From Escherichia coli O127:H6 str. E2348/69 (lineage in GTDB: Bacteria; Pseudomonadota; Gammaproteobacteria; Enterobacterales; Enterobacteriaceae): a stretch of DNA of 64,000 bases. This document shows positions 31,605-35,907 of the stretch, piece after piece (position 1 is the stretch's first letter; each line of letters opens with the position of its first letter). The DNA lies in the NCBI RefSeq assembly GCF_000026545.1, contig NC_011601.1. One strand, written 5' to 3'. The position numbers and the translations under genes were made by a program. A model generated the notes under the pieces. That model worked only from the letters and a program-made list of their open reading frames with translations. It had not been told where the DNA came from and ran no database searches.

Positions 31605-32612
31605 GTGAGAAAAACCAAACGCGTTACTATTAAAGACATTGCTGAACTGGCGGGAGTGTCGAAAGCAACCGCCAGTCTGGTTCTCAATGGTCGTGGCAAA
31701 GAGTTACGTGTTGCGCAGGAAACGCGTGAGCGTGTGCTGAGTATTGCCCAACAGCAGCATTATCAGCCCAGCATTCATGCCCGCTCATTACGGGACAACC
31801 GCAGTCATACCATTGGTCTCGTCGTTCCTGAAATCACTAACTACGGATTTGCAGTATTTTCCCATGAACTGGAAACATTGTGTCGGGAAGCGGGCGTCCA
31901 GCTCCTCATATCCTGTACTGATGAAAATCCTTCACAGGAAACAATGGTGGTGAACAATATGATTGCCCGCCAGGTTGATGGGTTAATCGTCGCATCCAGT
32001 ATGCTGCATGATAATGACTATCAAAAACTTAGCGAGCAATTACCTGTTGTGTTGTTCGATCGCCACATGAACGGCAGTACATTGCCATTGGTCATTACTG
32101 ACTCTGTTTCTCCCACCGCCGCTCTGGTGGCAGATATTGCACGGAGTCACCCGGATGAATTCTATTTTCTGGGCGGACAACCCCGTTTGTCACCGACTCG
32201 CGATCGACTGGAAGGATTTACACAAGGCTTGCAGCAAGCCGGAGTAACGCTACAACCTGAATGGATTATTCACGGTAATTATCATCCGAGCTCAGGCTAT
32301 GAAATGTTTGCCGCGCTATGCGCTCGTTTAGGACGTCCCCCTAAAGCCTTATTCACTGCCGCTTGTGGATTACTGGAAGGCGTTCTGCGCTATATGAGCC
32401 AATATAATTTACTCGACAGTAAAATACACCTGGCGAGTTTTGATGATCATTACTTGTATGATTCACTTTCGGTAAGAATCGACACAATACAACAGGATAA
32501 TCGCCAACTTGCTTTTCACTGCTTTGAACTTATTTCGCAACTGATTGAAGGTGAAACGCCATCCCCATTACAGCGTTATCTTCCTGCCAGTCTACAAAAA
32601 CGCTACCGATAA
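31605..32612 (+). CDS. scrR: LacI-family transcriptional repressor of the sucrose regulon
   Basis: 335-aa ORF (GTG start) with N-terminal [26 protein letters not shown] and periplasmic-binding-protein-like effector domain. Confidence 0.85.
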
Positions 32613-32696: not shown

Positions 32697-33368
32697 TCAG
32701 GCAATATTCAAATATTTATGTGTCTGCATCGACAAACGCCAGTTGCGCGCAATGCAGGTATCGATACATAAACGCGTAGCATCTTCCTTCTGGCTAATTG
32801 GCTGAAGTGCAATGACTCGCGGTTTATCATCGGTCAGCGTCGCAAGCAATTCATCCAGTGCTTCGATATCACGTACGCGTCCAACTGGGTGTTTGATTTC
32901 GTTAGCTCGCTCCAGGGCTTGCGACAATACTTCATAGCCGCCGCGCATGTTCAGCTTTGGCGATACGGTAACCCAGGTATTCGGTGTGCAGCGTACCTCA
33001 TGAGTACCACTGGTTTCGATCTGGCAGCTAAAACCGTTCTTTTCGAGCAGGTCAGTCAGTGGCAGCAAATCATGAATGCAAGGCTCACCACCCGTAATCA
33101 CCACGTGACGCGCGGTGTATCCCTGACGGCCAATGACAGCCAGCAAATCTTCACTGCTCGCCGCCCCCCACTTATCACTCTCTTTGGTCTTCGCCAGAAT
33201 GCTGAAAAGGGAGACTTCCCGATCCTCAAGCTTTTCCCAGGTGTGTTTGGTGTCGCACCAGGCACAGCCAACCGGACATCCCTGTAAACGAATAAAAATG
33301 GCGGGGACGCCGGTAAAGTAACCCTCACCTTGCAGGGTCTGGAACATCTCGTTAATCGGGTACTGCAT
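32697..33368 (-). CDS. queE: 7-carboxy-7-deazaguanine synthase (radical SAM)
   Basis: 223-aa ORF with radical-SAM Cys cluster (CPVGCAWCDTKH). Confidence 0.9.
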   Translation of the reverse strand: MQYPINEMFQTLQGEGYFTGVPAIFIRLQGCPVGCAWCDTKHTWEKLEDREVSLFSILAKTKESDKWGAASSEDLLAVIGRQGYTARHVVITGGEPCIHDLLPLTDLLEKNGFSCQIETSGTHEVRCTPNTWVTVSPKLNMRGGYEVLSQALERANEIKHPVGRVRDIEALDELLATLTDDKPRVIALQPISQKEDATRLCIDTCIARNWRLSMQTHKYLNIA

Positions 33369-33661
33369 AGCATTCTCTGTGAAGTGGATAATTGTTAATT
33401 ATTGCAGATCTCGCCGCAATATTCATGCTTTATTAACATTCTGTTACAGGCAGGTTTAAAGAAAAAAGCGAAACATATCGTTAATAATAAAAGGGAGTGA
33501 CATATTATGTCAGAAAGAAATAAAGTAAAGGGATTTTATCATGTCAAAAACATTCACCATAATTATATTTATCTTTTCTGTATTCATTTTTAATTATAAC
33601 GAATCTCAAATTACCGATACCGCCGTCAATTTATTTATCCAGCTTTAATAGGACATTTATA

Positions 33662-34534
33662 ATGCGCTATTTCATACTAATATTCACACTCGTGTGTTCC
33701 TTTGTTGCAGCCCAACCAACTATTGTCCCACAATTACAGCAACAAGTTACGGATCTTACGAGTAGCTTAAACTCACAAGAAAAGAAAGAACTGACGCACA
33801 AGTTAGAATCTATTTTCAATAATACCCAAGTACAAATTGCTGTATTAATTATTCCCACAACCAAAGACGAGACAATTGAACAATATGCTGCAAGGGTTTT
33901 TGACAATTGGCGTTTAGGAGATGCCAAACGCAATGATGGGATACTGATCATTGTTGCCTGGTCGGATCGCACTGTCCGCATCCAGGTAGGTTATGGGCTG
34001 GAAGAAAAGGTAACCGATGCTCTGGCTGGCAATATCATCCGTAGCATCATGATACCCGCATTTAAACAACAAAAATTAGCTAAGGGATTAGAGTTAGCTA
34101 TAATCGCTTTGAATAACCAACTCACTTCACAACACCAATATTCGTCTAATCCTTCAGAAAGTGAATCAGCGTCTTCCAGTGATCATTACTACTTTGCTAT
34201 TTTTTGGGTATTTGCAGTGATGTTCTTCCCTTTCTGGTTTTTTCATCAAGGCAATAATTTTTGTCGGGCATTTAAAAGCAGTGTTTGTATTTCAACAGTC
34301 TATCTTATAGATTTATTCCTGTTCTCCGATCAAACTTTTTCCATTGCTGTATTTTCCTTCTTTTTTGCTTTCACCACCATTATGGTCTTTACCTGTTTAT
34401 GTGTACTTCAGAAAAAAGCATCTGGTAGAAGTTATCATTCAGACAACAGCGGTTCCGGTGGTGGCTCAAGTGGCGGCGGATTTAGCGGCGGGGGCGGTTC
34501 TTCTGGCGGTGGCGGCGCGTCCGGTCGCTGGTAA
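33662..34534 (+). CDS. ygcG: TPM-domain membrane protein with Gly/Ser-rich C-terminal tail
   Basis: 290-aa ORF: signal peptide, TPM-like region, hydrophobic segments, tail [27 protein letters not shown]. Confidence 0.8.
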
Positions 34535-34542
34535 CTCAACCA

Positions 34543-34576
34543 TAAAAAATGCCAGCCCGAAGGCTGGCATTTTTAA
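34543..34576. terminator. bidirectional intrinsic terminator between ygcG and eno
   Basis: GCCAGCC-CGAA-GGCTGGC hairpin flanked by AAAAAAT upstream and ATTTTTAAA downstream; sits between convergent stops (34534 and 34594). Confidence 0.7.
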
Positions 34577-34593
34577 ATCAGATAAAGTCAGAC

Positions 34594-35907
<1,314 letters not shown>

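Follow-up and report, generated by a model that had tools for sequence, protein, structure and literature searches.

The segment 33507-33648 of Escherichia coli E2348/69 (EPEC O127:H6) is the yqcG locus in a form with a run of five A residues (A5), and the two overlapping short ORFs coded there are halves of one known gene. According to alignments with complete lemA genes, the same segment is what is left of the 5' end of a decayed lemA lipoprotein gene. The A5 yqcG is most probably a relic of lemA, perhaps still translated, that acts at most in cis. A sequence-only reading of the window (the whole stretch of 64,000 nt analysed, from contig NC_011601.1) had proposed candidate small-protein ORFs at this place. 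It is indeed small-protein coding territory, that of yqcG, but not the site of two independent unannotated genes, and genome annotation should give the span the name of the yqcG locus instead of listing two new small-protein candidates.

Genomic Position and Identity

The window is 100% identical to three independent E2348/69 assemblies. The divergent left neighbour of the locus is a 223-aa ORF on the minus strand (32697..33368), annotated as queE in E2348/69, and on the right the TPM-domain gene ygcG (Pfam PF04536, 2.3e-35) is coded on the plus strand at 33662-34534. The gap between queE and ygcG (33369-33661) is 293 bp long with G+C content of 29%, compared with 50.5% for the whole window, which agrees with the AT-rich gap of about 290 bp described upstream of ygcG. 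PGAP annotation of E2348/69 calls no feature within it. A LacI-family regulator and a sucrose-6-phosphate hydrolase of a csc/scr-type sucrose cluster adjoin queE (window 31605-32612 and leftward) in E2348/69, FHI_NMBU_03, and ST131, and K-12-like strains carry ygcE and a CRISPR array where E2348/69 has this cluster. The convergent gap between ygcG and eno (34538-34636) matched two Rfam families of Salmonella sRNAs, STnc370 and STnc430, below threshold (24-29 bits, with gathering thresholds of 47-54) and also holds hairpins resembling a bidirectional terminator.

At the equivalent position of E. coli K-12 MG1655 lies yqcG (b4682), coding for a 46-aa protein, MSEENKENGFNHVKTFTKIIFIFSVLVFNDNEYKITDAAVNLFIQI, with the product name 'cell envelope stress response protein YqcG'. 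EcoCyc and RefSeq both use the name cell envelope stress response protein. In K-12, the protein has reportedly been seen by epitope tagging, with induction under envelope stress (Hemm et al., 2008 and 2010). This detection and the RefSeq product name together indicate that the locus is expressed in at least one allele class, and they count against the relic reading. Identification of yqcG was dated to 2008 (PMC5821084).

The alignment to K-12 contains one length difference only. The window reads TCAAAAAC where K-12 reads TCAAAAC, which means an A5 run at 33546-33550 on the plus strand instead of the K-12 A4, and the yqcG span is 142 nt long in the window and 141 nt in K-12. Because this one extra A splits the K-12 frame, the gene is present as two halves of 28 and 35 codons. 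An uninterrupted 46-codon ORF from ATG 33507 is absent in E2348/69, as the frame ends after 28 codons. Sequencing error behind the extra A is excluded by the three identical E2348/69 assemblies and by at least 1163 genomes with A5. In strain FHI_NMBU_03 (99.3% identical), a PGAP pseudogene entry 'hypothetical protein, frameshifted' maps exactly onto 33507-33648, and a frameshifted entry at the equivalent span is present also in an ST131 strain and in strain H8 (RefSeq examples of such entries are BXO92_RS04040 and M5T49_RS05545). Thus, the yqcG gene and the flagging of its A5 allele as a pseudogene in many RefSeq genomes are already known.

Short ORFs and Their Ribosome-Binding Sites

Both ORFs of the sequence-only reading, ATG 33507 with 28 aa and ATG 33541 with 35 aa, are present and overlap as described. 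The 28-codon ORF is at 33507..33593 on the plus strand; its codons 1-14 (MSERNKVKGFYHVK) correspond to YqcG residues 1-14, and codons 15-28, past the extra A, are out of the YqcG frame. The 35-codon ORF is at 33541..33648 on the same strand. The last 32 of its codons match YqcG residues 15-46, and the ORF has the start codon and frame of the ancestral lemA. The AAGGGAG motif expected about 9 nt before ATG 33507 was found at 33491-33497 (plus strand, 9 nt before the ATG), with a predicted anti-SD duplex of -7.9 kcal/mol, and energies of -7.0 kcal/mol or lower occur at merely 2.6% of all plus-strand ATGs in the window. AAGGGAG is present in both yqcG allele classes, while lemA-type loci read AATGAAG at this position. 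A second site, AAGGGA at 33528-33533 on the plus strand, lies 7 nt before ATG 33541 and is the ancestral lemA Shine-Dalgarno sequence. Its energy of -5.1 kcal/mol equals that of the Nissle lemA start; the K-12 allele is without this site, reads AAAATGGA there, and has -3.1 kcal/mol.

The length of the ORFs by itself is not beyond chance. When the gap was shuffled with dinucleotides preserved, a plus-strand ATG ORF of at least 35 codons appeared in 18% of shuffles, and one that also had an SD of -5 kcal/mol or lower in only 1.5%. The 28-aa product is non-hydrophobic. In the 35-aa peptide, for which a single hydrophobic helix had been suggested, the hydrophobic stretch is real but short: the core has 11 uninterrupted residues, and the Kyte-Doolittle 19-residue maximum of 1.63 is borderline for a membrane span, which takes about 18-20 residues. 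The stretch has no more than 11-14 residues and is broken by Lys in most alleles, K-12 included.

Relationship to lemA Genes

In E. coli Nissle 1917, ECO2947, O55:H7, and SCPM-O-B-8794, queE has a divergent lemA as its neighbour, and two or three TPM-domain genes lie between lemA and eno. The same arrangement of queE, divergent lemA, TPM gene(s), and eno, with full-length lemA adjoining queE, is found in E. albertii, E. marmotae, and Klebsiella quasipneumoniae, and the yqcG-type locus was seen in E. coli only. As all outgroups have the lemA arrangement, lemA is the ancestral and the yqcG-type locus the derived state. The queE-eno region is a variable lemA-TPM cassette (window 33662-34534; L016 3587-6873; L019 6001-9602). 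Between queE and eno, Klebsiella has a single TPM gene, E. albertii and some E. coli have as many as three, and K-12 and E2348/69 have ygcG alone.

ATG 33541 and the start codon of Nissle lemA are in exact register in the alignment, and AAAGGGA precedes both. The queE-proximal DNA of the gap (33369..33506) is common to yqcG-type and lemA-type loci and corresponds to the 5' UTR and promoter region of the ancestral lemA. If the first 35 nt of lemA are added to it, its identity is 79-83% with E. coli lemA-type loci and 79-81% with E. albertii and E. marmotae. The 35-codon ORF was then compared without gaps, in genomic register, with six lemA genes. Over nt 1-35, identical positions numbered 22-27 out of 35 (63-77%), or 25-27 out of 35 (71-77%) if Klebsiella is left out. 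Over nt 36-90, they numbered 26-28 out of 55 (47-51%), with about 15 expected and with none of 5000 shuffles reaching this value, and the pattern YN[DE].Q..D..VN is kept. Over nt 91-105, just 1-3 out of 15 positions were identical, and homology is gone. The homology to lemA is therefore significant up to codon 30 and ends at 33630. Codons 1-30 (33541..33630, plus strand) are homologous to lemA codons 1-30 and code for the lipoprotein signal peptide, in which SVFIF stands in place of the LSGC lipobox, and the Pfam LemA domain of Nissle LemA covers residues 32-193, so the survivor is the signal peptide only. The remaining part up to ygcG (33631..33661, plus strand) consists of the five terminal codons LFIQL, which have no lemA counterpart, the TAA stop, and a 13-nt spacer.

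At the protein level, the 35-aa, 28-aa, and 46-aa peptides gave no match in Pfam and NCBIfam, LemA domain included, and the 35-aa peptide alone was not significantly similar to Nissle LemA in BLASTP (E = 4.1, 10 of 22 residues identical); the homology was for this reason established on DNA in genomic register. Peptide relatives in a database of 5.8 billion proteins were all from E. coli and not longer than 60 aa, and the protein search of this database revealed no full-length LemA with a YqcG-like N-terminus. In the literature searched, no link between yqcG and LemA was found, and no paper contained both words. The relic origin of yqcG, together with the reversed polarity of its 'frameshift', may be a small new point.

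Two features of lemA-type strains concern the start region. In O55:H7 DEC5B (L015 3655-4275), the canonical lemA ATG is ACG, and PGAP places the start 18 nt upstream, which gives a 206-aa product. Upstream mini-ORFs (MF* and MFSRIK*) precede lemA at the position of the yqcG ATG in lemA-type strains.

The rest of lemA may have been removed by a clean internal in-frame deletion, but a search for the deletion junction did not reveal it. In five cassettes, neither the lemA 3' end nor the lemA-TPM spacer resembles the last 37 nt of the relic (GTCAAT...TATA) significantly (p = 0.26-0.43), and about 260 nt of the window (33576-33836) have no nucleotide match to any cassette examined. On the ygcG side, the first 175 nt of the gene are likewise without a nucleotide match to any cassette. 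From 33837 onward (about residue 59), ygcG is 90-93% identical in nt sequence to the third TPM gene of SCPM-O-B-8794, and blastn gave 89.6% for 33837-34000 against this gene (L016). Judging from this pattern, ygcG may be a recombinant or chimeric survivor. A contig scan with YgcG gave one Escherichia locus and two irrelevant fragments, and the outgroup loci were located by way of LemA homologues. A fragment 88% identical to E. coli YgcG was found also on the Corallococcus aberystwythensis contig NZ_RAWK01000597.1 (L017, a low-coverage contig of 413 bp in a myxobacterial assembly); this contig is almost certainly E. coli contamination.

Distribution in E. coli

The allele classes were counted with a 38-nt probe across the A run, using megablast with a 28-nt exact word, by which neither form cross-matches to the other. 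The A5 form, with the GGG form of the SD, is present in at least 1163 out of 5426 complete E. coli genomes, ST131 included; this number is a lower bound, since the own sub-variant of E2348/69, which differs at two probe positions, is left out of it. The A4 form of K-12 is present in 2731 of the same 5426 genomes. The remaining genomes matching the gap, about 1350-1500, carry a full-length gene for a 200-aa 'LemA family protein' instead, and such loci make up 15 out of 60 evenly spaced rows of the ranking. The 35-aa ORF is thus missing altogether from about one quarter of E. coli. Each of A5 and A4 is on its own haplotype with linked substitutions, the SD base among them, by which phase variation on the A run is excluded.

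These counts bear on a TraDIS study, which suggested yqcG as 'potentially essential' (PMC5821084). That suggestion is contradicted by the natural absence or disruption of the gene in thousands of strains, as about one quarter of strains have no yqcG and in about one fifth it is split. Furthermore, a yqcG deletion strain exists (PMC4974570).

Sequence Divergence and Selection

Over the 32 codons shared by E2348/69 and K-12, there are eight nonsynonymous and one synonymous substitutions (pN 0.105, pS 0.051). No purifying selection on the peptide is evident, and the values are compatible with neutrality, although nine substitutions cannot exclude a weak constraint. The yqcG span, with 89.4% nt identity between the two strains, is the most diverged piece of the neighbourhood, followed by the queE-proximal gap (92%), queE (94.3%; 32697-33368 in E2348/69 and L003 1248-1919 in K-12), ygcG (95%), and eno, 1.2 kb from queE (99.2%). 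The stretch queE-yqcG-ygcG forms a local island of high divergence between these strains. The 35-aa forms have many amino-acid variants. Independent disruptions recur as well: IS600 truncates the yqcG locus in L013, and an IS1-associated deletion affects it in L014. In a T6 run inside the ORF (about 1390-1400 of the strain loci), an extra T is present in three unrelated strains, one of A5 type (L008) and two of K-12 type (L011 and L012), and represents either recurrent slippage or homopolymer errors of long-read assemblies. In strain O103:H2, ygcG has an internal stop. The sequence-only reading had regarded a frame not conserved in related strains as evidence against its candidates, and this is what was found in part: the frame differs between the allele classes, the ORF is absent from about one quarter of strains, and the changes are mostly nonsynonymous.

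A functional role of the 35-aa product has to be weighed against these data. As a natural short isoform of YqcG, it could be translated from the retained ribosome-binding site of lemA and sit in the inner membrane as a small membrane protein, held there by its hydrophobic N-terminal segment. The ORF is open in five out of six A5 loci examined, and an intact ORF with a usable SD is also the expected look of a functional short isoform, which counts against the relic reading. Moreover, the SD energy of -5.1 kcal/mol is that of a working lemA start in Nissle, the hydrophobic core is present, the 35-aa form is called by gene callers in many assemblies (one source names it an envelope-stress small protein), and the K-12 homologue is a recognised protein. 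On the other hand, the allele classes differ by eight nonsynonymous changes against one synonymous, the 35-aa forms have many variants, the Lys-interrupted hydrophobic stretch of 11-14 residues is short, the ORF is wholly missing from about one quarter of E. coli, and ribosomes from the stronger upstream site read through ATG 33541. A functional short isoform is for these reasons considered unlikely.

A broader version joins both allele classes. YqcG would be built from the wreck of lemA, that is, from the signal peptide, five novel codons and, in K-12 only, 13 residues gained from the former lemA 5' UTR via a 1-nt deletion. The 'frameshifted' alleles, which make up about one fifth of E. coli and include ST131 and E2348/69, would be older, and the original ribosome-binding site of lemA would in them still serve to produce a hydrophobic peptide of 35 aa, so that two natural isoforms of a young small protein coexist in the species. 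Taken as a whole, this proposal is doubtful. The reading of A5 yqcG as a lemA relic is preferred, in which the peptides are probably not under selection and a protein-level function is unlikely. As a relic without detectable constraint can be expressed, expression and stress induction alone are no proof of function.

Expression and Relation to ygcG and queE

The stop of the 35-codon ORF is 13 nt before the ygcG ATG, and in the full cassette the first TPM gene follows lemA at just this distance of 13 nt. When the plus strand was searched for terminator-like sites in 33250-34580, none was found between the ORF and ygcG, and the queE-ygcG gap gave no Rfam match at permissive thresholds. The relic is therefore probably co-transcribed with ygcG. 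Ribosomes would load at 33507 owing to the strong SD and make the 28-aa product with its stop at 33593, and would load also at 33541, at the native lemA ribosome-binding site, making the 35-aa hydrophobic peptide that ends 13 nt before ygcG. The remaining role of the relic, if any, would more likely be in cis, either as translated leader of the ygcG mRNA, with a modest translational coupling, or as DNA of the divergent queE regulatory region.

A leader peptide had been put forward as one possible meaning of the ORFs. This proposal is without structural support, as neither a terminator-like element before ygcG nor an Rfam match was found; a simple translational coupling is possible across the 13-nt gap. 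In such a coupling, the ORF upstream would control ygcG by feeding ribosomes to its weak initiation site, whose SD reaches -3.9 kcal/mol in E2348/69 and -2.7 in K-12. The short distance, conserved between lemA and the first TPM gene, and the uninterrupted path to ygcG are consistent with it. However, the gap has no attenuator-like structure, and A5 and A4 alleles use different start codons for the frame that runs up to the ygcG junction; control of ygcG by coupling is considered distinctly unlikely.

Towards queE, a promoter-like site is predicted by consensus match on the minus strand at 33484..33513 (-35 CTGACA, 18-nt spacer, -10 TATTAT; 10 out of 12 matches), and it overlaps ATG 33507. In K-12 delta-mgrB, queE is expressed much more strongly once yqcG is deleted, and both of the 300-bp segments upstream of queE are bound by PhoP-P (PMC4974570). 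The sequence CTGTTACAGGCAGGTTTA at 33441-33458 contains a GGTTTA half-site and an imperfect upstream repeat and resembles a PhoP box when judged by eye, which fits the reported binding of PhoP-P upstream of queE (PMC4974570). It belongs to a part of the gap with little variation between the aligned Escherichia loci, of yqcG or lemA type. A cis effect on shared regulatory DNA is the easier explanation for the response of queE to the yqcG deletion (PMC4974570).

Polarity of the A5/A4 Difference

The polarity was inferred from an alignment of 11 sequences. A5 alleles align to every lemA (E. coli, E. albertii, E. marmotae, and Klebsiella) without gaps through the lemA 5' region, while K-12-type alleles need a 1-nt gap. 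The arrangement AAAGGGA-N7-ATG is common to A5 alleles and to the lemA loci of Nissle, O55:H7, E. albertii, and E. marmotae; the SCPM and Klebsiella lemA loci read AAAAAGGA at the SD position. The most parsimonious reading of this alignment is that the A5 form is older and the 46-aa K-12 form derived. The K-12 YqcG would have arisen when one A and the internal SD were lost, by which the upstream start, with its SD AAGGGAG, became fused onto the relic. If A5 is ancestral, the PGAP label 'frameshifted' is given relative to a derived reference, and the tag probably reverses the direction of evolution.

The opposite polarity is implied by PGAP: a functional 46-codon yqcG would have been inactivated recently by insertion of one A, in agreement with the span of 142 nt against 141 nt in K-12 and with the label itself. 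Such a recent frameshift pseudogene is very improbable, as all six lemA genes, from three outgroup species among others, are gapless to A5 and need a 1-nt gap to the K-12 form, the ancestral SD is kept in the A5 form and lost in K-12, and A5, which is fixed together with linked substitutions in at least 1163 genomes, is no recent lesion. Restoration of a 46-aa YqcG-like protein in A5 strains, by a +1 ribosomal slip or by transcriptional slippage on A5, is hardly credible: a +1 slip of tRNA-Lys on GUC-AAA-AAC would give ...HVK-TFT..., the exact K-12 junction, but programmed +1 frameshifting takes a slow A-site codon (stop or rare) and a closely spaced stimulatory element, as in prfB, and here the A-site codon AAC is a common sense Asn codon and the SD-like AAGGGA is 12 nt upstream, a run of five A is too short for transcriptional slippage to be efficient, and the allele classes are stable and not switching. 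The preferred reading remains that of an older A5 form representing a lemA relic. On this reading, the K-12 YqcG is an instance of a validated small protein that has the signal-peptide stub of a decayed gene as its ancestor and is evolving without detectable constraint.

Comparison with Known Systems

Compared with the LemA gene (PF04011) of Nissle 1917, O55:H7, E. albertii, E. marmotae, and Klebsiella, the relic has the same locus, the same SD and start position, the same frame for 30 codons, and the same hydrophobic core IFIF. Like lemA, it is the first gene after queE and is followed by TPM-domain gene(s) and eno. It differs in the loss of codons 31 to about 200, which means the entire LemA domain, and in the lack of the LSGC lipobox and of any Cys.

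The K-12 yqcG is similarly placed between queE and ygcG on the ygcG strand and has the same upstream SD and start codon. Over the span, the two are 89.4% identical in nt sequence, and 24 out of 32 residues (75%) are identical in the shared C-terminal part. Unlike K-12, E2348/69 has the extra A, which gives 28 and 35 codons, and keeps the internal lemA-type SD that is gone in K-12. The PGAP frameshifted entries have coordinates equivalent to 33507-33648 and describe the same allele, but their label takes as reference the K-12 form, which is the derived one according to the outgroups.
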